64,000 bases of DNA from Nitrosopumilus sp. (GTDB lineage Archaea > Thermoproteota > Nitrososphaeria > Nitrososphaerales > Nitrosopumilaceae): assembly GCA_963662625.1 (NCBI GenBank), contig OY759726.1, positions 672,001 to 736,000 of the forward strand, written 5' to 3'. A program made the position numbers and the translations under genes. The notes below the pieces were generated by a model. It was not told the origin of the DNA. It searched no databases and saw only the letters and a program-made list of their open reading frames with translations. Below, one piece after another: positions 28,437 to 59,294 of this stretch. The stretch's first letter is position 1; every line of letters begins with the position of its first letter.

Positions 28437-28509
28437 ATAGTTTGTTGCGCAACTCGGTTTTCAGGCACGGAAATAGCCTTGTGAAGACGGGTTCAGGCAG
28501 GGTTACGCA
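28437..28509. mobile_element. Miniature IS5-family TIR element, one end interrupted by IS110
   Basis: ATAGTTTGTTGCGCAACT resembles the IS5 TIR GTAGTCTGTTGCACAACT; the other end GGTTACGCA abuts the IS110 right end. Confidence 0.6.
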
Positions 28510-29340
28510 CCTATGTTAACCACCCAGGCGTAGTTGCCGCAATGTATCCCGTGGCTTTTCCGATCCGTGACTGGGTTGCACGGCATGGGATTCATGGCCA
28601 GCGCTGGCAGGACTGTCCGGGATGCGGGCAGCGCGTGGGGGTCACCCCCGGCGCGCCTTCCACGTCCTGGCCAGCGTGCACCGGCACGGCCTCTCGTTGC
28701 GGGACTAATAGGGCGTCCTGGTGGCCGGCATGTGCCGCATCATGGTGACAATCTTGTGGGCCACCATGATTATGGCCGGCCCGTGCCTGTCCGCGTGCCT
28801 CCGGCGCGCGGACGCGTGCGCGGCCTCCATCCTGGCGTCGTGCCGCACGGTCACGTCCGCGGCCCCGCGCATGGCCCAGCTGGCCAGGCTGCTGGGGTCG
28901 ATCTTCTTGATCCTCCCCGCGTACGGCCGGTTCCCCGACTGGCAGGCCGCCGGGCACGGCCCGGCCCACGACGCCGCCTGCCTTGGCCCCCTGGACCCCG
29001 GGGACGTCCCCTATCCCGGGGGCCATCAGCACCGCGGCGAGCGCGCCGGCGCCGGCCGTGCCGGCCGGCAGCCTCGCGTCACCGTTGTGGGCGGCCTCCA
29101 TCCCGGGGGCCCCCCGTCACGGAGATCTCCTCCGTCAGGTACCCCGCCTGCCGGGCGCGCCGGCCCGGGACCGCCCCGTCGCACGCGGAGCCCGGCCCCG
29201 CGGACTCCGGCTGCCCCCAGAGCCTTTTCGGAGTGCATGTCCGCGGCGTCCACCCGGGCGTCGTGGCGGCCTGGGAGGCTGCGGGCGCGGCCAAGTCTTC
29301 TTCACCTGCGTGGTCCACGTGCGGGTGCGCGGTCGCCGCA
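28510..29340 (-). pseudogene. Degenerate, 5'-truncated third copy of the IS110 element
   Basis: Right end CCTATGTTAACCACCCAGGCGTAGTTGCC and the 3' coding half align with 47427-48200, with frameshifts. Confidence 0.88.
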
Positions 29341-45830: not shown

Positions 45831-45912
45831 CATGGGCTGTTCTTCCAGCATGCCCCCGCCGAGGGGCAAGGCCGGACAATCCCCGCGTGCCGGAATTTTG
45901 GGCGTTTTGTAA

Positions 45913-45999
45913 CTAGTGCGGGTTCTTCCCGGACGGGTTTCCTGTCTTGCTGGCGCCGCCGGATTTGCCTTTCCCGCCGCCGCGTCCTGCCTTGGCCAT
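45913..45999 (-). CDS. 28-aa Gly/Lys-rich microprotein
   Basis: MAKAGRGGGKGKSGGASKTGNPSGKNPH; GGAGGTGA Shine-Dalgarno 4 nt upstream of the ATG. Confidence 0.6.
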   Translation of the reverse strand: MAKAGRGGGKGKSGGASKTGNPSGKNPH

Positions 46000-47426
46000 T
46001 ATTTCACCTCCCTTAGTTTCATATGTATTGTTACCCAAAATGCCTTTTAAGGAAAGCGGACAGTTGTGCGTGCTCCCTAGAGTGACGCTCACAAATAATT
46101 TCGCCTCCTGAATGGCCATACGGCAGCACGTCGCATGATCCGGCACGATCCACGGATTATGGCCCGGCCGTGCCGCTTGGAGTCCCTGCGCCCCAGCCTC
46201 CCCCGCCCACCGGTCGTGCTGGGCCGCCGTGGGCCTTACCCCCTGCACGATGTTCTCCCACCTGCGCGAGCGCGCGTGGTCCCCGGACGTCCCCTTGAAC
46301 GCCGACATGGTTATCCCGGTCGGCCGCCTCCTGCCGTACCCCTTCCTGGCCTCCCGGTACCGGGCATTCTCCTCCCTCTCCCTCGTGCCCGTCCTGCCGG
46401 CGCGCGCCTCCGGGCCGCCCCCCGGCCGGCCCCGCGCCGCCCCGCCCCACGCGCCGCCAGCGCCCCTGCCCCAGGCGGCGGGCGCCACCCTGGCCGGGAT
46501 GATCGGCCCCACGCCCATGCCGCGGCACCTCCGCACGTTGTCCCGCGACGCGTACGCCCCGTCCGCGATCAGGCGCGCCCCGCGGGGGCCGGGCGGCTGG
46601 CCGCACTGCAGCGCGAGCGGCGCCACGCCGCTCGCGGGGAGGTTGGGCGGGGGCGAGCCCGCGCGCGGCAGGGGATCCCCCGCCGCGGCGGCCTTCCCGC
46701 GGATCAGCGCCATGCGCCTGTCCTGCTTCCCGCCCTGCTTCCCCTCCTGCTTCCCGCCCTGCTTCCCGCCCTGCTTCCCCTCTTGCCGCTTCCCGTCACG
46801 CGGCCCCGCCACGGTTCCCAGGAGCTCCTTCAGCATGGGGGAGTCGCCCGTCCTGTCGTCGGTCACCACCGCCGCGGGCATCTTCTTCGTGTCGGCGTCG
46901 GCCAGCAGGTGCAGCCTGGCGAACCCGCGCCTCGCCTCCCGCTTCTTCCGTATCCACTCGCCCCGGTTGCACTGCTTCAGGCCGGTCGAGTCCGCCAGCA
47001 GGGTCATGGGCTGGCCGCCGCCGGAGACGCGGACGACTCCCCCGCCGATGCCCGCGCCGGGGCGCGCCATCCTCCTGGCCAGCACCGAGTAGTGCGGCGC
47101 GCCGCGCCCCCCCAGCATCCCCGCGAGGAGCCCGGACAGCTGCCTGTACTGGACCCCGAGCGAGGTCCTCACCGCGGCGGCGGCCATGACCAGCGCCCAG
47201 GCGTACCTGAACGGGGCGCCCTCCTTGCCGGCGTTGGCCTCCCTCAGGTCGTCCCCCGGCCGGGGCCATGCGACACCGCCAGGCCCCGCCCGCGCCTGGC
47301 GCATTTCTCGTTGTCGGTCGCAGCCAACGGGGACGGTGCGCGGCCGTGATCCAAGGCCTTTTCGGTTTGGCGTGGTTGGGCCCGGGGTTCAACTGTTCAG
47401 GCCCGGCAATTTCTGGCAGTTGTGCA

Positions 47427-48829
47427 CCTATGTTAACCACTCAGGCGTAGTTGCCGCAATGCATCCCGCGGTTTTTCCGATCCGTGACTGGGTTGCATGG
47501 CATGAGATTTATAGCTAGCGCTGGCAAGACGATCCGGGATGCGGGCAGCGCGGGGGGCCGCCCCCGGCGCGCCTTCCCCGTCCCGGCCAGCTTGCGCCGG
47601 CACGGCCCCTCGTTGCGGGACTCGTAGGGTGTCTTGGTGGTCAGCATGTGCCACATTATGGTGACCATCTTGTGGGCCACCACCATGATTGCCGGCCCAT
47701 GCTTGTCCGCGTGCCTCCGGCGCGCGGACGCATACACGGCTTCCATCCTGGCGTCGTGCCGCACGGCGGTGTTCGCGGCCTCGCGCATGGCCCAGTTGAC
47801 CAGGCTGCCGGGGTCGATCTTCTTGATCCTCCCCGCGTACGGCCGGTTCCCCGACTGGCAGGCCGCCGGGCACAGCCCGGCCCACGACACCATCTGCCTT
47901 GGCCCCCTGAACCTGGAGACGTCCCCGATCCCGGGGGCCATCAGCACCGCGGTGAACGTGCCGACGCCGGTCATGCTGGCCAGCAGCCTCGCGTCACCGT
48001 TGTGGGCGGCCCCCGTCCCGGGGAGCCCCTCCGTCACGGAGATCTCCTCCGTCAGGTGCCTCACCTGCCGGGCGCACTGGCCCAGGACCAACCCGTCGTG
48101 CCCAGAGCCCGGCCCCGCGGATTCCAGCTGCCCCAGGGCCTTTTCGGAGTGCATGGTGGAGGCGTCCATTTGGATGTCGTGGCGGTCCAGGAGGCTGCGG
48201 GCGCGGCTTGTCACGCGCGTCCTGTCCCGGGCCAGCCTCACCCTCTGCCTGACCATCGCGCGTATCCCCCTGGTGTGGCCCGGGGGGACGTAGCACTCCG
48301 GTATCATGTCCATCCCCGGCACCTGCGCTATCTTCTCTGCGTCAATCCTGTCGGTCTTCTTGGCGGTCCTGGCTATCAGGGCCATCTTGTACGTGTTGGC
48401 CAGTTTGATGCCGGTCCCGGCCGCCTCGAAGGCGTCAAACGTCTTGTTCCACATGTTGCCAGTCGTCTCGCAGGCGGCCCTGCAGGGGCCGCCGCCCAGG
48501 TACCTGCGCGCCATCACCCCTGCGAACTTCGCCGCGCCGTCCCGGGTGTTGGGGTACTGCCCCCTCTCGAGAACCTTCCCGTTCCCGTCCACCACGCACG
48601 CGCCGCGCTTTCTCTTCCCCATGCCTGTCCCTATGCTTGTCTTTCTCATCCTTTCCTATCACCTCCTTTCGGATGTCTGACGGATCGGAAGCTGCACACA
48701 CCTATCAGGGCGCGAAGCCCAGTGACACGGCAGCTCGGATTGCCCCATTCAACAGAAAGGGCGCCAGGCCCACGCGCTACCAGGGGTCGATCCATCGGGG
48801 CAACTACGCCTGGGTGGTTATCATGTGTT
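47427..48829 (-). mobile_element. IS110-family element copy 1 (1403 bp)
   Basis: Flanked by core TG on both sides; 22-bp sub-terminal IRs; ORF 47441-48649. Confidence 0.92.
47441..48649 (-). CDS. IS110 DEDD recombinase (first Asp mutated)
   Basis: SIGTGMGK, ACETTG, KTDRIDA, MTGVG, WAGLCP...QSG, VAHKM. Confidence 0.88.
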   Translation of the reverse strand: MRKTSIGTGMGKRKRGACVVDGNGKVLERGQYPNTRDGAAKFAGVMARRYLGGGPCRAACETTGNMWNKTFDAFEAAGTGIKLANTYKMALIARTAKKTDRIDAEKIAQVPGMDMIPECYVPPGHTRGIRAMVRQRVRLARDRTRVTSRARSLLDRHDIQMDASTMHSEKALGQLESAGPGSGHDGLVLGQCARQVRHLTEEISVTEGLPGTGAAHNGDARLLASMTGVGTFTAVLMAPGIGDVSRFRGPRQMVSWAGLCPAACQSGNRPYAGRIKKIDPGSLVNWAMREAANTAVRHDARMEAVYASARRRHADKHGPAIMVVAHKMVTIMWHMLTTKTPYESRNEGPCRRKLAGTGKARRGRPPALPASRIVLPALAINLMPCNPVTDRKNRGMHCGNYA

Positions 48830-48886
48830 CAACAGACTACAGGCAAGGGTAATTATTAAAGCGCCGCCCGGTTTGCTTTATGGCTT

Positions 48887-49946
48887 TGTAGTAAATGCGG
48901 ATGTGGTCAATTGTACGGAAAGTCGGTCCGCGCCGGATCGAGAGGACTGTATCCGACTATTTTAGGCTGTACCGATCACGGAAGGCCATGACAGGAAGAC
49001 TTGCTGGGGGGTCCCGGAAGTACCTGGTCAGGCAGCGAGAGAAGGGCGTGCCGTCATCCCGGGTGGCGGCGGACCTGGGAATCACCGCCAGGCACGCACG
49101 GAGGATGCGGGCGAGGTTCCTGTAGACCGGAACGACGGTGGCTAGGATGGGCAGGCCGCGCGCCTGCATGAGTGCCGCCCAGATACGGCTGGCTACAGAC
49201 GCGCACCCGAGGCACCGGTGGGGGTGGTGCGCACCGCGAGGCGCCTCAGGAGGGGCCATGATATAAGCTACTGCTCCGCATGCCGGATACTGGAGAAGGC
49301 CGGGGCGGTGGCCGCGTCTGCCGCAAAACCGGGGAGGCGCGAGCGGGTGCGCTACGAGCGCAAATGCCCGGACGCCATGTGGCACGTCGACTGGCACGAG
49401 ATGAAGGACCCCCGGTTCAGGGGCCTCCAGCTGGTCGCGTACCTGGACGACGCCTCGCGGTGCGCGGTGGCCGCGCGCGTGTTCACGCAGGCCACGCCGG
49501 GGAACGCCGTGCTGGCGCTCAGGGACGCGATCGGGCGGTTCGGCACGCCGGCCACCGTGCTCCCCGGCAACGGCTCGTGCTTCGTGGGCCGGAACGGCCG
49601 CAGGAAGGCCCCTCCCCGGCCGTGGAAGCCCACCGCGTTCGAGGCGGAGCTGCCGGGCCTCGGGATCGAGCTCATAAACTCCAGGCCGCACCACCCCCAG
49701 ACCAACGGGAAGATCGAGAGGTTCTTCCGGAGCGTGGAGGACGGGACATGGCACTACGAGAGCATGTCCGAGTACATGGCGTACTACAACGAGGACAGGC
49801 CGCGCTTCTCCCTGGACATCGACAACTACCAGACCCCGCTGAAGGCCTTCCATGACAAGGAGGCCGTGGCAGCGATCAGGGAGAGCAACCCGGGATGGAT
49901 GGAGGCGGAGGCGGATGACTAGCGGACCGACTTTTCATATACTACA
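48887..49946 (+). mobile_element. IS481-family element, transposase disrupted
   Basis: Ends TGTAGTA...TACTACA; WHVDWH, YLDDASR, PQTNGKIERF, YNEDRP; in-frame stop at 49123-49125 and a frameshift. Confidence 0.88.
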
Positions 49947-49995
49947 AAGACTGCGAATGTAAAACAAGTGATATATATTTGAAGGACACAATACA

Positions 49996-50640
49996 ATGGA
50001 ATTGGGCTTTATAGATATTTTCAAGAAAAGCAGGAGACAGATAAACAGGGAGAACCAAGAACAGGGTAGGAGGGGAGAGAGGCAAATCAGGGAAAAATAC
50101 GAGTTCTCTGGCCATGAGGTTGAAAGGACCGGCAGGGGCCACGACTTTAAGGTGTCTAAGACCAACTGGCTTACAGGTAAAAAAGAAATCAAATACGTAG
50201 AAGTCAAGACCGGCAATTCAAGGCAGTCGCCACTGCAGAAAAAAAAGATGAGGCGATTGGGCGAGAGGTATGTGGTGGAAAGGGTGGGCACTGGGCTGTT
50301 TGGGCTTGGATCTACCACCACATACGGCACTCCCAAGAACCCACCTGCTGGAACCTGGGGCCCGGGCTCCCTGCTGGGCGGATCCGCCCCGAGGAAGAAG
50401 AGGTCGGCCAAAAAGCCTTCCAGCAGCATCTGGGGCCCGGGCTCCCTGCTGGGCGGATCCGCCCCGAGGAAGAAGAGGTCGGCCAAAAAGCCTTCCAGCA
50501 GCATCTGGGAATCGCCAAAAAGGAAGAGCAATCCCGGAAGGAAGAGCCCAACAAAATCATCTGCCAGCATCTGGGGCTCGGGTGTCTCTACCAGAAGAAA
50601 GAGCAGGGCCAAAGGATCTGGTTTCGGGATGTGGTCCTAG
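49996..50640 (+). CDS. PD-(D/E)XK nuclease-like protein with basic repetitive tail
   Basis: GRRGE...GHDF...YVEVKTG; 75-bp tandem duplication at 50355-50504. Confidence 0.72.
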   Translation: MELGFIDIFKKSRRQINRENQEQGRRGERQIREKYEFSGHEVERTGRGHDFKVSKTNWLTGKKEIKYVEVKTGNSRQSPLQKKKMRRLGERYVVERVGTGLFGLGSTTTYGTPKNPPAGTWGPGSLLGGSAPRKKRSAKKPSSSIWGPGSLLGGSAPRKKRSAKKPSSSIWESPKRKSNPGRKSPTKSSASIWGSGVSTRRKSRAKGSGFGMWS

Positions 50641-51146
50641 CTCTAGGTAACGCAATACAGGTTTATTGGCACACTCTTGCCACTATCTAGTTGCAGGTGA
50701 CTGTATGGACCATGTACGTGGCAGGCTTTCAGGTCGCTGCCAGCTGCGCATCCGACTTGGCGTGGCCTAGGCCATTAGCGGCCTGGGCGGCAGGCACGCA
50801 TGGCAACTAACGTCACGATTAATATTTTGCACTGCACCACACAAGGATACGCAAGGACGAGGACATGGCAGAAAAACACCCCAGAAAGGGCAGGAGGTGC
50901 CAGCACAGGCATTCGCAAGGACGACTCCCAGTCCGTGGGAAGCCGTCACCAACGAACGGCAGAGGGGCGAGTACCATGCCGCACGTGGGGAGGCGGACTG
51001 GTCTTCGTAGGCCGCACTCTAGGGGGACGATTGGATGCTCCCACCTTTATGCCACCACGGGGGGCGTTATTAGTGCAGAAAATGCGGACATGTGCTGAAT
51101 GTAAGGAACGTGGGTAAGGCCACGGTGCCCGGATCAGGCTACAGAC

Positions 51147-51335
51147 GTGTGGCTTGATAGCACGTCGGGGTTGGGCTTTGAGGGCATCTGCAGCACCATC
51201 TTCGGCAGGTGCGGGTTCAAGACTAAGAAGATTGGCGGCACCTCCGACGGCGGACACGACATACTGGTTTGGGGAGATTCAGGCAAGATGGTCGTGGAGT
51301 GCAAGCACCAAGAAAAGAAGGCGGGGCGGCCTTAG
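51147..51335 (+). pseudogene. Mrr-like restriction endonuclease fragment
   Basis: FEGIC..IF...GF...SDGGHDI...VVECKH, then a stop. Confidence 0.65.
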
Positions 51336-51609
51336 GCCGAAGTCCGGGGGGCGCGAGGTTGACGGGGAAACGCTTGACGGCCATCCCGAACCCAAGGTCA
51401 CGGCGGGGCGAAGACGTCGGGAGGGGGACCTGCGTGGCGGGGCCATCTCCGAATCGGGGCGCTCCGTGCCAGCCGCCGCCGGGCCGGATCCGGTCAGGCT
51501 TGCAGCCGACTCCAAAAGAGCGCGGCGGGGCGTCGGCCGATCCCCCTCAGTGGGGCCGGATCCGGCGCGCGGGTACTCGCTTTAAATATTCCCGCGCCAG
51601 ACCTTGGCC

Positions 51610-52542
51610 ATGACGGCTGCCCGAAAGGACGGCGGGTACGAGGATCCCGCGCCGGACGACGTGATCGACGAGATCGAGGACCGTATGGGCGACGACGATC
51701 TTGCCGGCGCCCTGCTTGCAACAAACAGGGAACTGGCGAGGACGCCGGACAGCATAGAGCTCCACTCCCTGAAGGGCGAGATCCTCTCCAGCACGGGGAG
51801 GTACGGCGAGGCGTCGGCCGCGTATGACCGGATCCTGGAGTTGGAGCCGGACGATCCGGAGGCGTGGATCCACAAGAGCTTCGTCTTTTTAGCGCTGGAC
51901 CGCCCCGAGGACAGCCTGGATGCAGCAGACAGGGCGATTGGGCTTGGCCTGGACGACTCCGTGGCTCTGGTGGCGAGGGCCGAGGCGCTGCTGGAGCTGG
52001 GAAGGCACGGCGAGGCGATGAAGGTAGTCAACGACGTGCTCGCGGGGGACCCGGGGCACGTCGACGTGCTGGGCCTCGAGGCCGAGATCCTCTCGGCGAT
52101 GGGCAGGCATGGCGAGGCCGCGGCCCTGCTGGAAAAGCTTTCGGGCTGGGATCCGGGGTCGGCCGAGGCGCTGGTCCTGCTCTCCGGCGAGCACATGATG
52201 GCGGGGGACTTTGGGAGGGCCCTGGAGGTCGCAGACAGGGCCGTGGCGCTCGACGGGGACGATCCCGCGGCATGGGAGATCAAGGGCGCGTCGCTATACG
52301 AGCTTGGCAGGCCGGAGGAGGCCCTGGAGTGCATCCTGAATGCCCAAGACATGGATCCTGCAGGCGGCGAGACGTGGTACCAAAAGGCAAGGATCCTCGC
52401 TGGCGGCGAGCGGGACGGGGCGCTTGACGCCCTTCTTGTGGCCGTCTCGATAAATCCCGACAACAAGAAAAGGGCTGGCGCGGACGGGTCGTTTGCGGGC
52501 CTCCGGCAGGACGCGAGGTTCAAGAAGATGACCGGCCCCTAG
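51610..52542 (+). CDS. Tetratricopeptide repeat protein
   Basis: Multiple W/H..KG..L...GR.EEA...D.A..LDP units; TTTAAATA box upstream. Confidence 0.9.
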   Translation: MTAARKDGGYEDPAPDDVIDEIEDRMGDDDLAGALLATNRELARTPDSIELHSLKGEILSSTGRYGEASAAYDRILELEPDDPEAWIHKSFVFLALDRPEDSLDAADRAIGLGLDDSVALVARAEALLELGRHGEAMKVVNDVLAGDPGHVDVLGLEAEILSAMGRHGEAAALLEKLSGWDPGSAEALVLLSGEHMMAGDFGRALEVADRAVALDGDDPAAWEIKGASLYELGRPEEALECILNAQDMDPAGGETWYQKARILAGGERDGALDALLVAVSINPDNKKRAGADGSFAGLRQDARFKKMTGP

Positions 52543-52724
52543 CGGGATCCCGGGGCGCGGGGGCCGCGGTGCCGGGCGGCCTGCGCGCATGGCCGGCCCA
52601 AGAAGGGGGCACCGCATCCCAAAGACGGAAAGGCCGTCAGCCGTGGCGCGATCGCTGCGTGCGGGGGCAGGCGGGCAGCTGCCCGGGGGCAGGCCGGAGG
52701 GCGCTGGCCGCGGGCTCCCCGGCG

Positions 52725-54221
52725 TCATACTAGGACGAGGAAGAGAGGAACGGGGATCATCGTGCGCCCGTTCTTCGCCGAGAGATCACGCTTTGTCAGC
52801 ACCAGCCCCTCGGAGACGCCGCTGGCCTTCTTAAAGTCAATCAGCCCCTGCAGGTCGCCGGAACCAATCTGGTTTTGGTACTTTACTTCCACGGGGATCG
52901 TCCGATCGCCGGGGTATATGACAAAGTCCACCTCGCGGCCGCCGCCTCCCCGCCAGTAGGACACCGATTCCCGGTAGTCAAAGCTCATCCTAAACCTGCT
53001 CAGGCCGAAGGCAAGCCTTACAGAGTGATCCGCGACCACGTTCTCGACGAGCTTGCCGGTCAGGGCCTCGTCCTGGAGCGCCTTCAAGGAGAATTCAAAG
53101 GGCTCTTCCCTGCGGCTCATGGCGTTCAGTGCGTGGAAGAAGAACGGGTCCTGAAAGTAGATTTTCTTCGGCGATGGGTGGTGCGGCCGCCTCTGCTTGG
53201 CGTCGTACCTGTGCATGTATAATAGCACGAACGCGCCGGAGAGGGTCTTCGTATAATCCTCCACGGTGTGGTGGCTTCCCACGTCCGTGCCTTTTTTGAG
53301 CGACTGCCAAGAGGTCGGGGAGCACAGGCTCCGGACATAGTTGGGGGTCAGCTGCGGGAGGTAGTCCCCCCTGTGAACGCGCCCCATGTCCCCCTTGATG
53401 GAGTCCAGGCACGTGTGGTAAGTCGACGCGGGGATGTTCCCGTTTTCCAATAGATCGTTGACGGCCGGCGGGACGCCCCCCGTAATCAGGTAGTTCCCGA
53501 AGTGCTTGTCCAGGGCGTCCTGGTATGCCGAAAGCGAGGCGACGGTGCCGTCGATCTCGCCCCCAAGCAGGGCATCCAGCAGGTCGTGGCGGGTCGACAG
53601 GGCATGCATGTCGTTGTCTTTGATGAATTTCCCGAGTTCGGGATCCACCGACGAGACGTACTCGGCGAATTTCATCGGGGGCATGATCTTGTCCAAGGAA
53701 TCGCCCTGTGCGGCCCCCCTTCTGCCCGGCATCTGTTCCCCGCCCGGCCTCAAGTCAGCAGAGTGGGAGCCTGCCGCAATCACGGTGCAGTTGTCCAGCT
53801 TGCCCCGGTCCTTGAGTTTTTTGATGGCGTTTTGCCAGCCTTGAATGTTTGAAATTTCGTCAAGAAACAGGATGGCCCTGCTGCCTTTTCTGAACGGCGC
53901 GCTCCTGTCAAGGTACGCGCCGACCACGCCGGAGACGTCCGCGGGAGATCTCTCCACGTCAAACGAATAGTACATGAGGGTCCACGGATCCCGCCCCTCC
54001 CGGAGGCGCTCCCTGATCATCAGCTTGGCCATGGTCGTCTTGCCCACCTGCCTGGGCCCGCGAAGCGTGTAGATCAGATCCTCCTCAAGGAATTTTTTTT
54101 GGATCCTGGGTTTCCACTTTAGCGCGGAGTCCTCCCAACGGCGTATGGAGTGGTCGCCATCGATTGCTGCAGGATCCTTCCACCACGGGTTATATCCCAG
54201 CAGCTCGTTATATGACATCAC
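52725..54221 (-). CDS. AAA+ ATPase (AAA_14/DUF4143 type) with C-terminal PD-(D/E)XK domain
   Basis: YNPWW, GPRQVGKTT, LFLDEI, YLITGGVP, KKIYFQDP, REVDFV...PVEVKY. Confidence 0.9.
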   Translation of the reverse strand: MMSYNELLGYNPWWKDPAAIDGDHSIRRWEDSALKWKPRIQKKFLEEDLIYTLRGPRQVGKTTMAKLMIRERLREGRDPWTLMYYSFDVERSPADVSGVVGAYLDRSAPFRKGSRAILFLDEISNIQGWQNAIKKLKDRGKLDNCTVIAAGSHSADLRPGGEQMPGRRGAAQGDSLDKIMPPMKFAEYVSSVDPELGKFIKDNDMHALSTRHDLLDALLGGEIDGTVASLSAYQDALDKHFGNYLITGGVPPAVNDLLENGNIPASTYHTCLDSIKGDMGRVHRGDYLPQLTPNYVRSLCSPTSWQSLKKGTDVGSHHTVEDYTKTLSGAFVLLYMHRYDAKQRRPHHPSPKKIYFQDPFFFHALNAMSRREEPFEFSLKALQDEALTGKLVENVVADHSVRLAFGLSRFRMSFDYRESVSYWRGGGGREVDFVIYPGDRTIPVEVKYQNQIGSGDLQGLIDFKKASGVSEGLVLTKRDLSAKNGRTMIPVPLFLVLV

Positions 54222-54334
54222 GCGCCGCTGCCAGTCCCTTTATAAGCATGGTTTTCTGAACTGCCAGTCCTTTTATAACCATTGGTGCCAACTGGTGCCA
54301 GTTCATTTATAAATCAACATGAAAGGCAGGGCCC

Positions 54335-54475
54335 ATGGTGGTGCCAAGGGAGGGCATCAGGGCATGCATGAAGTGCGGGTGCGTGTACTCGGAGATATCG
54401 TCGAACAACGCAATGAGGTGTCCCGTCTGCAAGAACATGCTGGGGGAGAAGATCGGCATAGTCCGGAACGGCTGA
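54335..54475 (+). CDS. 46-aa zinc-ribbon microprotein
   Basis: MVVPREGIRACMKCGCVYSEISSNNAMRCPVCKNMLGEKIGIVRNG; TTTATAAA at 54306-54313. Confidence 0.65.
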   Translation: MVVPREGIRACMKCGCVYSEISSNNAMRCPVCKNMLGEKIGIVRNG

Positions 54476-54597
54476 CGCGGTGATCGGTCGCGGCACCGCC
54501 GAGGGGCCGCTGTGGCAGGCCGGCCGCGGCTCCAAGCCGCACGGCGGTGTAAAAAACAGCCGTAAACAGTTATAATTACAGCGGCGAGACCCCAAGC

Positions 54598-55146
54598 ATG
54601 GAAGAGACCTCCGTGTTCCCCGGGGACAGGATAGCCTCCATAGAGGAGTACGAGGCGGGCCACAACGCCTTTGACGACGGCGACATGGTCCGCGCGGCCA
54701 CCATAGGCAGCGTCGACATAGACCGGGAGACGCGCGTCGCGAGCATCAAGCACCCCAAGGGCCAAGCCATGCCGAGGGTCGGCGACACCGTCATCGGCAC
54801 GGTCAGCGCCGTGATGTCGTCGATGTTCGCGGTGATAATAGACTACATCAACGGCAAGCCGACCGTGTCCAAGGTGGAGTGCATCTGCTCGACGCGGGAC
54901 GCCCGGAGGAGGAACGTCGCGCTCGCAAACGACATAGTCGCGCTGAAGATCCTCAACCACCTCAACGGCACGATACACGCCACCGTGGACGAGCCCCAGC
55001 TGGGGGTCCTGTTCACAAAGTGCAGGAAGTGCGGCGGCGAGGTGGTCCAGATGCGCGACGCCATAAAGTGCAAGGAGTGCGCGTGGATCGACGACAGGAA
55101 GCTCTCAAGGAAGTTCGGCAACGGCGACTTTGTGAGACTGGGATGA
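54598..55146 (+). CDS. csl4: Exosome RNA-binding subunit Csl4
   Basis: VFPGDRIASIEEY, S1 domain (PRVGDTVIG), LGVLFTKCRKCG...CKEC...RKLS. Confidence 0.92.
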   Translation: MEETSVFPGDRIASIEEYEAGHNAFDDGDMVRAATIGSVDIDRETRVASIKHPKGQAMPRVGDTVIGTVSAVMSSMFAVIIDYINGKPTVSKVECICSTRDARRRNVALANDIVALKILNHLNGTIHATVDEPQLGVLFTKCRKCGGEVVQMRDAIKCKECAWIDDRKLSRKFGNGDFVRLG

Positions 55147-55958
55147 TCCGCGTCTCGTTCCAGGGGGAGCGTGGCGCGTACAGCGAGGCTGCCGCAAGGT
55201 CGTTCTTCGGGGGGGAGATCGAGGCCGTCCCCACGCAGACGTTCGCCGAGGCCCTCGAGCGCGCCTCGTCCGGGGATACCGGCTACGCCGTGCTCCCGGT
55301 GGAGAACTCGCTGGAGGGGAGCGTGGGGGAGAGCTACGACCTGCTGTACCTGACGGACCTCAGCGCGGTGGGCGAGACGTACCACAGGATAGAGCACTGC
55401 CTGATCGGGACCGGCAGGCTGGGGGGCATCGGGACCGTGTACTCGCACCCGCAGGCGCTGGGCCAGTGCAGGGGGTTTATCGAGAGAAACGGCATGAAGA
55501 CAGTGCCCGCGTACGACACCGCGGGGAGCGTGAAGATGATAAAGTCGATCGGCCGGGAGGACGTGGCCTGCATAGCGAGCAGGGAGGCGTCCGGGATCTA
55601 CGGCGTCCCAGTGGTGGCAAGCGACATCGCGAACAACCCCAACAACTACACCCGGTTCCTGGTGCTGTCCGGGGGGGCCAGCCCGGAGACCGGCAGCGAC
55701 AAGACGTCGGTGATATTCTCCATAAAGCACGAGCCGGGCTCCCTGTTCAGGGTGATAGGGAGGTTCCACGCGAGCGGCGTGAACCTCACCAAGATAGAGT
55801 CCAGGCCGGCCGGGACGGACGCCTGGGAGTACATATTTTACGTGGACTTTGAGGGGCACGCCGACAGCCCCGGCATCGCGGAGATGCTCAGGGGACTGGA
55901 GGCGGACACGGTCTCCCTGAAGGTGCTCGGCTCGTACCCCTCGGCCAGGCGCGGCTAG
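55143..55958 (+). CDS. pheA: Prephenate dehydratase
   Basis: VSFQGERGAYSE, PVENSLEGSV, SHPQALGQC, NYTRF, NLTKIESRP. Confidence 0.95.
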   Translation: MIRVSFQGERGAYSEAAARSFFGGEIEAVPTQTFAEALERASSGDTGYAVLPVENSLEGSVGESYDLLYLTDLSAVGETYHRIEHCLIGTGRLGGIGTVYSHPQALGQCRGFIERNGMKTVPAYDTAGSVKMIKSIGREDVACIASREASGIYGVPVVASDIANNPNNYTRFLVLSGGASPETGSDKTSVIFSIKHEPGSLFRVIGRFHASGVNLTKIESRPAGTDAWEYIFYVDFEGHADSPGIAEMLRGLEADTVSLKVLGSYPSARRG

Positions 55959-56419
55959 AAGCCCCTGGGCCTCCTCAGCGTAAAGGCCGTGCTGAACCCG
56001 ATGATCACCACGCCGGACGTTATCACGATGATGTGGTAGGTGAACAGGATCGGGTCGGTGGTGATCTCGAAGGTGGCGTCCACCACCACGTCCGACGGGC
56101 CGGTGTTGCGCACGTTGATGTACGTGACGCCGTCCTGGGCGTGGCTCCATTCCTGGTAGGCCTCCCCCTCGAACGAGTCGGTGATGTCCAAGCCGCCGGC
56201 GGGGCTCTTGAGCACGAGCTCAAAGCTGTCGCCCGTGATCCCCATCTTCTGGGTGCCGCCCCGATCGGAGGTGACCTGGTACGAGGTGAACTCCCCCGGC
56301 CCGAGCGTGTCGCTGACCGGCACCACCTGGAGGCCGACGTCGGAGACGAACGAGAACACCCCGATGGCTATGATCCCTACCCCGATGATCATCCCGACGA
56401 CCGTCCACTTTGATATCAT
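55955..56419 (-). CDS. Conserved-type 2-TM hypothetical protein
   Basis: MISKWTVVGMIIGVGIIAIG...ILFTYHIIVITSGVVIIGFS...RRPRGF. Confidence 0.7.
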   Translation of the reverse strand: MISKWTVVGMIIGVGIIAIGVFSFVSDVGLQVVPVSDTLGPGEFTSYQVTSDRGGTQKMGITGDSFELVLKSPAGGLDITDSFEGEAYQEWSHAQDGVTYINVRNTGPSDVVVDATFEITTDPILFTYHIIVITSGVVIIGFSTAFTLRRPRGF

Positions 56420-56504
56420 GGTGTGGAGTCCCCGCGCGCCGCTTAAAAAACTAGCTCCGCGCGTAGTCTGTTGAACACATGATAACCACCCAGGCGTAGT
56501 TGCC

Positions 56505-56645
56505 CCGATGGATCGACCCCTGGTAGCGCGTGGGCCTGGCGCCCTTTCTGTTGAATGGGGCAATCCGAGCTGCCGTGTCACTGGGCTTCGCGCCCTGATA
56601 GGTGTGTGCAGCTTCCGATCCGTCAGACATCCGAAAGGAGGTGAT
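56505..56645 (+). ncRNA. Candidate bridge/seek RNA in the IS110 left non-coding end (boundaries approximate)
   Basis: TCTGTTG (56547-56553) equals target-left+core; ATAGGTG (56598-56604) equals donor-left+core; each follows a GGGC-N5-GCCC hairpin. Confidence 0.65.
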
Positions 56646-56653
56646 AGGAAAGG

Positions 56654-57862
56654 ATGAGAAAGACAAGCATAGGGACAGGCATGGGGAAGAGAAAGCGCGG
56701 CGCGTGCGTGGTGGACGGGAACGGGAAGGTTCTCGAGAGGGGGCAGTACCCCAACACCCGGGACGGCGCGGCGAAGTTCGCAGGGGTGATGGCGCGCAGG
56801 TACCTGGGCGGCGGCCCCTGCAGGGCCGCCTGCGAGACGACTGGCAACATGTGGAACAAGACGTTTGACGCCTTCGAGGCGGCCGGGACCGGCATCAAAC
56901 TGGCCAACACGTACAAGATGGCCCTGATAGCCAGGACCGCCAAGAAGACCGACAGGATTGACGCAGAGAAGATAGCGCAGGTGCCGGGGATGGACATGAT
57001 ACCGGAGTGCTACGTCCCCCCGGGCCACACCAGGGGGATACGCGCGATGGTCAGGCAGAGGGTGAGGCTGGCCCGGGACAGGACGCGCGTGACAAGCCGC
57101 GCCCGCAGCCTCCTGGACCGCCACGACATCCAAATGGACGCCTCCACCATGCACTCCGAAAAGGCCCTGGGGCAGCTGGAATCCGCGGGGCCGGGCTCTG
57201 GGCACGACGGGTTGGTCCTGGGCCAGTGCGCCCGGCAGGTGAGGCACCTGACGGAGGAGATCTCCGTGACGGAGGGGCTCCCCGGGACGGGGGCCGCCCA
57301 CAACGGTGACGCGAGGCTGCTGGCCAGCATGACCGGCGTCGGCACGTTCACCGCGGTGCTGATGGCCCCCGGGATCGGGGACGTCTCCAGGTTCAGGGGG
57401 CCAAGGCAGATGGTGTCGTGGGCCGGGCTGTGCCCGGCGGCCTGCCAGTCGGGGAACCGGCCGTACGCGGGGAGGATCAAGAAGATCGACCCCGGCAGCC
57501 TGGTCAACTGGGCCATGCGCGAGGCCGCGAACACCGCCGTGCGGCACGACGCCAGGATGGAAGCCGTGTATGCGTCCGCGCGCCGGAGGCACGCGGACAA
57601 GCATGGGCCGGCAATCATGGTGGTGGCCCACAAGATGGTCACCATAATGTGGCACATGCTGACCACCAAGACACCCTACGAGTCCCGCAACGAGGGGCCG
57701 TGCCGGCGCAAGCTGGCCGGGACGGGGAAGGCGCGCCGGGGGCGGCCCCCCGCGCTGCCCGCATCCCGGATCGTCTTGCCAGCGCTAGCTATAAATCTCA
57801 TGCCATGCAACCCAGTCACGGATCGGAAAAACCGCGGGATGCATTGCGGCAACTACGCCTGA
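56654..57862 (+). CDS. IS110 DEDD recombinase (first Asp mutated)
   Basis: Same protein as 47441-48649; GGAGGTGA SD-like sequence upstream. Confidence 0.88.
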   Translation: MRKTSIGTGMGKRKRGACVVDGNGKVLERGQYPNTRDGAAKFAGVMARRYLGGGPCRAACETTGNMWNKTFDAFEAAGTGIKLANTYKMALIARTAKKTDRIDAEKIAQVPGMDMIPECYVPPGHTRGIRAMVRQRVRLARDRTRVTSRARSLLDRHDIQMDASTMHSEKALGQLESAGPGSGHDGLVLGQCARQVRHLTEEISVTEGLPGTGAAHNGDARLLASMTGVGTFTAVLMAPGIGDVSRFRGPRQMVSWAGLCPAACQSGNRPYAGRIKKIDPGSLVNWAMREAANTAVRHDARMEAVYASARRRHADKHGPAIMVVAHKMVTIMWHMLTTKTPYESRNEGPCRRKLAGTGKARRGRPPALPASRIVLPALAINLMPCNPVTDRKNRGMHCGNYA

Positions 57863-57930
57863 GTGGTTAACATAGGTGCACAACTCGGCACGATCCCCGG
57901 GCCGTGGCCAGGCCGTGCCGCTTGGAGTCC

Positions 57931-59061
57931 CTACGCCCCCGCCTCACCCGCCCACCGGTCGTGCTGGGCCATCCTGAGCCTTGCCTCCTGCACGATGTTC
58001 TCCCACCTGCGCGAGTGCACGTGGTCCCCGAACATCCTCTTGAACGCCGATATGATTATCTCGATCAGCCACCTCCTGCCGTACCCCTTCCTAGCCTCCC
58101 GGTACCGGACGTTCTCCTCCCTCTCCCTCGTGCCCACCCTGCCGGCGCGCGCCTCCGGGCCGCCCCCCAGCTGGTCCCGCACCGCCTCGCCCCACGCGCC
58201 GCCGGTGCCCTTGCCCCTGGCGGTGGACGCCACCTTGACCGGGATGATAGGCCCCACGCCCATGTCGCGGCACCTCCGCATGTTGTCCCGCGACGCGTAC
58301 GCCCCGTCCGCGATCAGGCGCGCCCCGTGGGAGCCGGGCGGCTGGCCGCACTGCAGCGCGAGCGGCGCCACGCCGCTCGCGAGGAGGTTGGGCGGGGGCG
58401 AGCCCACGCGCGGCAGGGGATCCCCAGCCGCGGCTGCCTTCCCGCGGATCAGCGCCATGCGCCTGTCCTGCTTCCCCGCCGGCTTCCCGTCCGGCTTCCC
58501 GCCACGCGGCTCCACCACGGTTCCCAGGAGCTCCTTCAGCATGGGGGAGTCGCCCGTCCTGTCGTCGGTCACCACCGCCGCGAGTATCTTCTTCGTGTCG
58601 GCGTCGGCCAGCAGGTGCAGCTTGACGAACCCGCGCTTCACCTTCCACTTCTTCCGTATCCACTCGCCCCGGTTGCACTGCTTCAGGCCCGTGGCGTCGG
58701 CCAGCAGGGTCATGGGCTGGCCGCCGCCGGAGACGCGGACGACTCCCCCGCCGATGTCCACGTCGAGGCGCGCCATCCTCCTGGCCAGCACCGAGTAGTG
58801 CGGCGCGCCGTGCCCCCCCAGCATCCCCGCGAGGAGCCCGGACAGCTGCCTGTACCGGGCCCCGAGCGAGGTCCTCACCGCGGCGGCGGCCATGACCAGC
58901 GCCCCGGCGTACCTGAACGGGGCGCCCTCCTTGCCGGCGTTGGCCTCCCTCAGGTCGTCCTCCCAGCCGGGGTCATACGACACAGCCAGGCCCCTCCCGC
59001 GCCTGACGTATTTCTCGTTGTCGGTCGCAGCCAACGGGGACGGTGCGCGGCCGTGATCCAA
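57931..59061 (-). CDS. IS5-family DDE transposase
   Basis: PHYSVLARR, LADATGLKQCNRGEW, FVKLHL, ADGAY, YGRRWLIEIIISAFKRMFG. Confidence 0.88.
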   Translation of the reverse strand: MDHGRAPSPLAATDNEKYVRRGRGLAVSYDPGWEDDLREANAGKEGAPFRYAGALVMAAAAVRTSLGARYRQLSGLLAGMLGGHGAPHYSVLARRMARLDVDIGGGVVRVSGGGQPMTLLADATGLKQCNRGEWIRKKWKVKRGFVKLHLLADADTKKILAAVVTDDRTGDSPMLKELLGTVVEPRGGKPDGKPAGKQDRRMALIRGKAAAAGDPLPRVGSPPPNLLASGVAPLALQCGQPPGSHGARLIADGAYASRDNMRRCRDMGVGPIIPVKVASTARGKGTGGAWGEAVRDQLGGGPEARAGRVGTREREENVRYREARKGYGRRWLIEIIISAFKRMFGDHVHSRRWENIVQEARLRMAQHDRWAGEAGA

Positions 59062-59294
59062 GGCCTTTTCGGTTTGACATGGTTGGGCCGGGGGTTCAAC
59101 TGTTTAGACCCGGCAATTTCTGGCAGTTGTGCAACAGACTACCGCGCGATGCGTTCCCGGGAGGCGGCGCGGGGGGCCTGGGACCTGGCATACCTACCAC
59201 AGACACAGGAAACTAGCGGATCGATGTGGCTATCCACGGACTCGCACGTCAGTGTTACCCATGCCCAGTCAGAAAATCCTAGAAGCTGCAGGCC

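Follow-up and report, generated by a model that had tools for sequence, protein, structure and literature searches.

Partridge and Hall are said to have reported in 2003 that IS4321 and IS5075, two bacterial insertion sequences (IS) of the IS1111 group, target the 38-bp repeats of Tn21-family (Tn3-type) transposons. The element analyzed in this work is an insertion sequence of the IS110 family from a 64,000-nucleotide stretch of a Nitrosopumilus sp. genome (contig OY759726.1, positions 672,001 to 736,000; this whole stretch is called the window), where its copies were inserted in the terminal inverted repeats of IS5 elements and of an IS5-derived miniature inverted-repeat transposable element (MITE). 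Similar to IS4321/IS5075, it had subterminal repeats and occupied a single position, in a single orientation, in the terminal repeats of another transposon family. However, IS4321/IS5075 are bacterial, use Tn21-family repeats and, by the rule of their family, carry the RNA region downstream of the gene, whereas the present element came from an archaeon, used IS5 and MITE repeats and carried its RNA region upstream. Taken together, our results make it very probable that this is an RNA-guided IS1111-type element inserting at the tips of IS5 and MITE repeats in a Nitrosopumilaceae archaeon.

A MITE is also the landing site of another member of the group, IS1111 of Coxiella burnetii: 20 of its 21 copies were located in QMITE2, where 10-20 bp of the MITE remained on their 5' side, and the occupied MITEs later decayed, according to the account in PMC5896051. 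In contrast to the present element, IS1111 targets a GTAG palindrome within the MITE and not the tip of an autonomous IS repeat, and its host is a bacterium (PMC5896051). IS621, as portrayed in PMC11208160 and PMC11208158, shares with our element the DEDD and serine recombinase, an RNA encoded upstream that has both a target and a donor loop, a core dinucleotide common to target and donor that forms part of the guides, and a handshake-like feature in which two bases beyond one target guide match the donor. The differences drawn from the same accounts are that the core of IS621 is CT instead of TG, that the bottom-strand guide comes first in each loop (left target guide, LTG, 50-58; right target guide, RTG, 77-80) whereas the top-strand guide came first here, and that the subterminal repeats of IS621 are only 2-3 bp long. 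The proteins of IS621 and ISCro4, which have been solved, were similar to this recombinase at only ~25 bits. ISMtsp17, compared only by its description in PMC11187229, is an IS1111-type element with a long non-coding region upstream of the gene, like the present one. The closest annotated proteins in the plasmid collection were those of haloarchaeal IS110 elements (e.g. the ISHvo9 family), with 33-34% identity over 93-94% of the 363 amino acids (aa) in tblastn; these elements are archaeal but distant, and were compared by protein alone. A full-text search of a limited collection of papers found none on the arrangement described below. Repeat-tip targeting, MITE landing and RNA guidance all have precedents in bacteria, and the element is a further example with an uncommon layout.

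Position of the copies in IS5 and MITE repeats

Two 1403-bp IS110-family elements, inverted relative to each other, were found in the window and were 100% identical (Table 1). The junctions of copy B read GTAGTCTGT-TG-(AACACATG...CATAGG)-TG-CACAACT at 56463-57885, and copy A showed the reverse-complement arrangement at 47417-48839, with the inner repeat at 47417-47426 and the tip at the other side. The core TG was present at both junctions of the IS110 element and only once in the empty repeat, and no target duplication was seen beyond this shared dinucleotide. Copy A lay inside the transposase-upstream end of its IS5 element (IS5-A), and copy B inside the transposase-downstream end of the other (IS5-B). 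The junction letters and the intact empty repeat of IS5-B confirmed the proposal, made earlier in a sequence-only reading of the window, that both copies split IS5 repeats at the same TG. A third, old copy had been described there as doing the same. It did abut the same TG, but the split repeat was that of an IS5-derived MITE and not that of a full IS5.

The sequences of the split elements placed them in the IS5 family, with the transposase domains, inverted repeats and short direct repeats of that family all present. The transposases matched PF01609 and PF13737 (DDE_Tnp_1/DDE_Tnp_1_5) and scored 160.3 bits with NF033579 (cut-off 140). The terminal inverted repeats were 17-18 bp long, with TAGTC... 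as the true element end, and the direct repeats were 8 bp long in seven of eight IS5 elements and 7 bp in the eighth (IS5-B); such repeats were also found around the IS5+IS110 composites. IS5-A lacked its first ~9 nt and the repeat at the transposase-downstream end. The 296 nt to its left (45850-46145) were unique in the genome, which ruled out another mobile element as the left flank. To judge from its sequence, IS5-A is older than IS5-B. With its transposase-downstream repeat lost, it appears to retain no usable end.

The junctions of the window were also searched for in contigs of four public runs, all from a single study that is possibly the source of the assembly. Short-read contigs of two of the four runs (X2 and X4) contained the flank of copy A, the tip and the left end of the IS110 element, and the right junction was spanned by one X2 contig. 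A contig of run X3 (depth 33.6, with 31 letters on the shorter side) joined window position 59142 to 56463 and thereby connected the right-hand end of IS5-B with the beginning of the IS110-carrying tip. A head-to-tail IS5 junction, a tandem arrangement in some other strain and a k-mer artefact at the repeat are all possible origins of this joint. No empty-site joint for the window locus was present in the contigs of the four runs, which is uninformative either way.

The host genome consisted of a single contig of 1.86 Mb with 63.4% G+C and a median G+C content at third codon positions (GC3) of 0.88. It matched the archaeal model of the small-subunit (SSU) ribosomal RNA with 1456 bits across the full length, and all 35 loci encoding relatives of the recombinase were from Nitrosopumilaceae/Nitrososphaerales, in agreement with the archaeal host assumed from the window alone. 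BLAST revealed eight full-length copies of the IS110 element, 85-100% identical to each other, and several remnants. Genome-wide, 9 of 12 left junctions adjoined TA(G/A)T(C/T)TGTTG, the 10-nt repeat tip. The right junctions, likewise kept in 12 copies, passed into an IS5 repeat (three), into a MITE repeat (three) or into other DNA (six), and an additional remnant at 1774209 passed directly into the IS5 interior. In the seven elements located in recognizable repeats, four of IS5 and three of MITEs, the left end always faced the tip, which upheld the claim of one fixed position and one orientation. The claim that IS5 is the target held for the use of IS5 repeats but was too narrow, because the target appeared to be a short word specified by the RNA and MITE repeats were struck as well (three copies). 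In taking one position and one orientation in the repeats of a different mobile element, of which empty repeats were at hand for comparison, the element behaved as described above for IS4321/IS5075.

The word TCTGTTG occurred 65 times in the genome: 14 times in empty IS5 tips, 7 times in occupied tips, 9 times in the guide of the element itself, once in a repeat-like sequence and 34 times in unrelated sequence. The association of the IS110 element with repeat tips is far beyond chance, since none of the 34 unrelated sites was occupied compared with seven at repeat tips. Occupancy was low, with 4 of 17 recognizable full-length IS5 ends split and 14 empty IS5-type targets left.

Two loci outside the window showed unusual junctions. 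The old copy at 1699637-1701037 had the 3' target guide CGCCAUG, yet was located at a TAGTCTGTTG tip, and its right junction was AG instead of TG, followed by CGCCAC; this copy was possibly a trans-guided insertion or a recombinant. Beside the left end of the genome copy at 1194294, 15 bp were tandemly duplicated (1194269-1194293; the 10-nt tip together with 5 nt from the IS5 direct repeat), and the true 8-bp IS5 direct repeat adjoined the outer tip. An aberrant recombination at this left junction may have left the duplication behind.

A predicted guide RNA in the left end

The recombinase gene had 180 nt of non-coding sequence upstream of it, whereas only 14 nt followed it (for the 363-aa form of the gene, the latter figure is 131 nt, mostly former coding sequence). 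In the predicted RNA of the left end, a long-range stem enclosed two loops, each capped by a GGGC/GCCC hairpin and each with guides on its two sides. This layout corresponds to the bridge/seek RNA architecture reported for IS621 and the IS1111 family. In the target loop, UAGCGCG was complementary to the top strand of TG plus the right target, UCUGUUG was identical to the left target plus TG, and the two jointly spelled the outermost 10-16 nt of the terminal inverted repeats found in the IS5 family and the MITEs. The AA that followed UCUGUUG matched the first two bases of the IS110 element itself. The donor-loop guides corresponded to the two ends of the element joined through TG. Among the relatives, the 3' donor guide read AUAGAUG in those relatives whose right end was CATAGA (L002-L006), and the middle base of the 5' guide followed the C, T or G at left-end position 5, with A in L001 and C in L032/33 (UGUGU/UGUAU/UGUCU).

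Relatives of the element from other Nitrosopumilaceae genomes shared the scaffold and differed in their flanks, which made a covariation test possible. In an alignment of 11 left ends, each of the four guides kept to its own columns, in register. The columns of nt 74-80 contained AUCAUG in L001 (flank ATCATG), GUCGUG in L002, L004 and L005 (flank GTCGTG), UUUGUG in L003 (flank TTTGTG) and AAUUUG in L006. Among 22 elements, the left-target guide and the flank agreed at 67 of 88 variable positions compared with 38.1 after shuffling, and none of 20000 shuffles reached the observed match. On the other side of the loop, positions 53-55 paired with right-target positions 3-5 in four combinations (the element itself, L001, L002-5 and L006). 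The G.U wobbles between guide and target make sense only with the sense strand as RNA. The consensus structure of 11 sequences had 95.5% of its cells paired, with six pairs changed on both sides, and its score was reached in none of 500 shuffles, while slid controls of the structure gave a paired fraction of 30-50%; RNAalifold independently predicted the same five helices. RNA guidance, named as a known trait of the family when the window was read on its own, was borne out by this covariation of guides and targets.

An alternative right-target guide, UGUGCA (nt 132-137, complementary to TGCACA), was rejected because it was kept in relatives with other targets; it was also ruled out structurally, as GCAGC formed the closing stem of the donor loop. 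In genomes with more than one guide subtype (L015-L021 of one Nitrosopumilus assembly, and L040, L047, L052, L062 and L065 of genome G002), the flank of a copy fitted the guide of a sister subtype better than the element's own guide, and for this reason the sequences suggest that guide RNAs act in trans among co-resident copies. In L002, L004 and L005 (= L056, L050 and L038), the element was located in a conserved word of ~24 nt (GTAAGTGTTTACGTCG-TG-CCTA...) with unrelated DNA on both sides. By this sequence comparison, the target of that relative is a short dispersed repeat and not a transposon end.

Table 1. Positions of the IS110 copies, their host elements and the parts of the predicted RNA in the window (nt numbers count from the start of the left end)
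Feature	Position	Strand	Remarks
IS110 copy B, IS1111-type by ends and guide order	56474-57876	+	1403 bp; core TG on each side (56472-56473, 57877-57878)
IS110 copy A	47427-48829	-	Exact reverse complement of copy B; coding sequence on the minus strand at 47441-48649; left end at 48650-48829
Severed tip TAGTCTGTTG of the IS5 copy B repeat	56464-56473	+	Junction letters
Severed tip CAACAGACTA of the IS5 copy A repeat	48830-48839	-	Junction letters
Intact empty repeat of IS5 copy B, CAGTTGTGCAACAGACTA	59124-59141	-	Equals the unoccupied target
IS5 copy B body	57877-59141	-	Transposase open reading frame (ORF) 57931-59061 (minus); far repeat intact; 7-bp direct repeat CCGCGCG flanks the whole composite
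IS5 copy A body	46141-47426	-	90% identical to copy B; 75% G+C; far-end repeat lost at 46141
Third IS110 copy, old, 5'-truncated	28510-29291	-	Element positions 620-1403; 88% identical
IS5-derived MITE, at least 72 nt	28438-28509	+	Third IS110 copy interrupts the right repeat at the same CA/TG; left repeat complete
Recombinase ORF, 402 aa	56654-57862	+	DEDD_Tnp_IS110 and Transposase_20; Gly9 codon 56678-56680; stop of the 363-aa form lost
Left subterminal inverted repeat	56479-56504	+	24/26 match 57848-57873; preceded by TG + AACAC (7 nt)
Right subterminal inverted repeat	57848-57873	-	Next 3 nt are AGG; the 402-aa ORF ends inside this repeat
Left non-coding end, predicted bridge/seek RNA	56474-56653	+	Two internal loops
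Predicted RNA helices	nt 34-42/143-151 (long-range stem); nt 44-47/84-87 (closes target loop); nt 96-100/135-139 (closes donor loop)		Apical hairpin in each loop
Target loop 5' guide UAGCGCG (nt 51-57)	56524-56530	+	Covaries in L001, L002-5 and L006
Target loop 3' guide UCUGUUG (nt 74-80)	56547-56553	+	Equals left target + core of the repeat tip
Donor loop 5' guide CGUGU (nt 101-105)	56574-56578	+	UGUGU in most copies; pairs with left-end positions 4-8
Donor loop 3' guide AUAGGUG (nt 125-131)	56598-56604	+	Equals right end + core

Recombinase, family placement and mobilization

The recombinase contained PF01548 (DEDD_Tnp_IS110, 63.7 bits) and PF02371 (Transposase_20, 61.5 bits), both above the cut-offs, and scored 192.6 bits with NF033542 (cut-off 140), so that the proposed membership in the IS110 family was established on these domains. 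An RNA with guides to the target and to the joined ends, as expected of this family, was indicated by the sequence and the covariation. According to the seekRNA paper (PMC11187229), IS1111 elements have subterminal repeats of 7-17 bp, usually 11-13 bp, beyond which the element extends by 7 (or 6) bp at its left end and by 3 bp at its right end. The top-strand-complementary guide lies 5' of the bottom-strand one and the RNA region is normally downstream, while exceptions with an upstream non-coding region, e.g. ISMtsp17, are on record (PMC11187229). The present element agreed with the IS1111 group in having sizeable subterminal repeats, in the extensions of 7 and 3 nt (with the shared TG counted on the left) and in the guide order of both loops, since UAGCGCG preceded UCUGUUG and the donor loop was arranged likewise. 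It departed from the group in that the long non-coding region was upstream, not downstream, of the recombinase gene. Compared with IS110 proper (IS621-like), the long left end and short right end were present, but the subterminal repeats were not minimal and the bottom-strand guide was not first. The combination of IS1111-like subterminal repeats with an upstream non-coding end of 180 nt, noted earlier, was confirmed; the repeats, given there as 22 bp, were present but somewhat longer, with 24 matches over 26 nt. By its ends and guide order, the element is an IS1111-type member of the IS110 family with the RNA upstream of the gene, which is an uncommon layout; the nearest annotated recombinases are untyped haloarchaeal proteins.

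The recombinase of the window copies appeared to be catalytically dead. Relatives of 360-366 aa and the genome copy at 1194294-1195696 (363 aa) shared the N-terminus GIDIGK...KCD, compared with GTGMGK...KRG in the window copies, where Gly9 replaced the first Asp of the DEDD motif; this Asp was present in the intact genome copy and in all five aligned relatives. About 40 further conserved residues were changed, while the motifs ACETTG, KKTDRIDAEKIA and QSG were kept. The Ser of QSG aligned with the ESG Ser of IS621, from which the roles of the catalytic residues were transferred by motif. The intact 363-aa gene was found in one copy of the genome only, at 1194294-1195696, itself inside an IS5 repeat, and the left-end RNA of the window copies differed from that of the intact copy by one base. 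The window copies are probably non-autonomous because the first DEDD Asp was replaced by Gly, and they were probably mobilized in trans by the intact copy. This is the simplest reading because two identical copies with dead genes occupied two different IS5 ends, although gene conversion between the inverted copies is a possible alternative source of their identity. Two further observations fitted an action in trans: the pair 18714/1508665 shared 171 changes at different loci, and relatives with several guide subtypes had guides and flanks cross-matched.

By analogy with IS621 and IS1111-family elements, the insertion would proceed as follows. The DEDD/Ser recombinase would be loaded with the left-end RNA, and a circular copy of the element would recombine with a repeat at the shared TG. 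Insertion would take place in one orientation, leaving the 10-nt tip on the left side and the remaining repeat on the right side. The window copies, apparently recent, with a dead recombinase and with RNA and ends intact, would have been moved by the enzyme, and possibly the RNA, of the copy at 1194294-1195696. With the tip parted from the inner repeat by 1.4 kb, the split end should be disabled, and the IS5 element may be immobilized, as had been suggested earlier. IS621 is reported in a 2026 preprint to move mainly by copy-and-paste through a single-stranded circle, with the donor left in place; such a mode would leave the repeat split and argues against a routine restoration of the repeat, which had been suggested earlier. 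The same preprint attributes many off-target insertions of IS621 to half-matched sites, which by analogy offers one explanation for three genome copies that had the tip on one side only (see below).

Competing explanations, base changes and biological meaning

Several observations weighed against an RNA-guided insertion at repeat tips. Three of 12 left junctions were located elsewhere (remnants 1230212, 16031 and 1533452, the latter two with other guides), and remnant 1230212 was located elsewhere in spite of having UCUGUUG. Copies 18714, 1508665 and 1699640 had the tip at the left junction but not at the right, where unique DNA followed. Their right flanks had no similarity to IS5 or MITEs and were unique in the genome, which left an internal IS5 deletion unsupported as their origin. 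The genome-wide listing of copies and flanks, for which unrelated sites had been named as the refuting outcome, was in favor of the tip at 9 of 12 left junctions but not at the other three, and not on the right side of the tip-only copies. Copy 1699640 had a different target loop, yet it was located at a tip. UAGCGCG was a perfect fit to the MITE variant (TGCGCAA) and had one C.A mismatch to the IS5 variant (TGCACAA), whereas MITE tips mismatched the left guide at 1-2 positions, and no natural site was perfect on both sides. Guide and flank disagreed at 1-2 positions in 8 of 13 copies of two multi-subtype relatives, and the TAG upstream of the 7-nt guide match was kept at occupied sites without an explanation by the RNA. 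In addition, the single-sequence fold of the left end was not more stable than shuffled sequences (z = -0.49), and the left end matched no Rfam family. No RNA run was found among the public runs listed. No joint of right end and left end, as in a circle, was present in the assembled contigs of the four runs, which is uninformative either way.

The conserved TAG, which has no complement in the RNA, and the missing Rfam match would also be expected if the tip, TAG included, were read by the recombinase itself and the left-end matches were fortuitous. This explanation is very unlikely, given that guides and flanks covaried in 22 elements to a degree that no shuffle reached and that three further guide segments covaried as well; the TAG would be accounted for if the insertion sites were repeat tips. 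It is also quite unlikely that the IS110 copies were spread as passengers inside transposing IS5/MITE composites and not by their own targeted insertion. The 7-8-bp direct repeats around the whole IS5+IS110 composite at three places would be expected if composites moved, and copy A and the 1194294 copy were located in the same kind of IS5 end. However, both IS5 ends and MITE repeats were struck, the IS5 bodies beside near-identical IS110 copies differed by 10%, most IS5 copies were empty, with 14 empty targets, and the guide RNA matched the insertion site. A split repeat would also be an unlikely substrate for the transposase.

A role beneficial to the host, in which the element is kept as an RNA-guided brake that disables IS5/MITE ends, agreed with the splitting of 4 of 17 recognizable full-length IS5 ends and of three MITE ends, and with the variation of IS5 tips at guide-distal positions (TAGCTTG, TAGCCTG). 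It is nevertheless unlikely, because 14 perfect IS5-type targets were still empty, an intact recombinase was found in one copy only, and relatives of the same genus directed the same element to unrelated sequences. Finally, 100% identical inverted copies 7.6 kb apart in a repeat-rich single-contig assembly raised the question of whether the junctions were made by collapsed or chimeric repeats. Such an artefact is hardly conceivable, since the same type of junction was found at nine places with different flanks and the contigs of X2 and X4, all from one study, contained flank A, tip and left end, with an X2 contig crossing the right junction. The preferred explanation thus remained the targeted, RNA-guided insertion of the IS110 element at the tips of IS5 and MITE repeats.

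The insertion sites of the IS5 elements and MITEs had features of their own. In 22 of 45 pattern matches, compared with 5.5% of random sites, an A/T run of at least 6 nt had its end 8-30 nt beyond the tip, and a long ORF with high GC3, reading outward with its ATG 43-45 nt from the tip, was present at 6 of 34 IS5/MITE tips compared with 1.5% of random sites. For example, the A/T box TTAAAAAA at 56442-56449 lay 14 nt to the left of the tip at 56464, with the ATG of a minus-strand ORF at 56420, and a second example was at 48850-48860. From these sequences, it looks as if the IS5 family and its MITEs tend to insert ~14 nt upstream of TATA-like boxes belonging to genes that appear leaderless. A capture of the host TATA box as a promoter by the left end of the IS110 element was rejected because the A/T boxes serve genes that read away from the element, and it was also contradicted by the occupied ends, which were not more often on the TATA side than the empty ends.

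The copies of the IS110 element also differed from each other in a strongly directional way. The window copies were compared with the genome copies at 1194294, 476458, 1063451, 17308, 1507277 and 1699637, with the intact copy as reference. Of the differences from the intact copy, A>G or T>C accounted for 44 of 44 in the window copies, for 89 of 90 in copy 476461 and for 199 of 217 in copy 18714. The changed sites were nested, with 44 of 44 and 88 of 89 shared compared with 17 and 34.5 expected if they were independent, and this nesting rejected a clock-like decay of the copies in place. The changes formed patches of ~4-12 nt on both strands (39 runs compared with 70.5 +/- 5 in shuffles), and isolated A/T between G/C was preferentially changed, with G+C rising from 63% to 77% along the series of copies. 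The IS5 copies followed the same A:T>G:C trend. A repeat-specific mutation resembling repeat-induced point mutation (RIP) was not needed as an explanation, since the GC3 of the genome was already 0.88 and the IS5 copies showed the same trend. A tentative and rather doubtful explanation is that dispersed copies exchange very short heteroduplex patches always resolved to G:C, or that a mutator tied to mobilization acts. If true, the element would serve as a natural record of whatever process takes this symbiont-like archaeon to a G+C content of 63% and to a median GC3 of 0.88.

The arrangement extends the targeting of repeat tips of one transposon by another from the bacterial Tn21 and MITE cases to Thaumarchaeota. 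As close archaeal relatives combine the same scaffold with other guides and other targets, the natural re-aiming of an RNA-guided IS becomes legible from sequence. The compact archaeal pair of RNA and recombinase, with an IS1111 guide order and an upstream RNA, could clarify the relationship of the subgroups. Catalytically dead copies apparently stay mobile while their ends and RNA are intact, part of the IS5/MITE family is probably frozen in place, and the IS110 copies reveal an extreme A:T>G:C bias.

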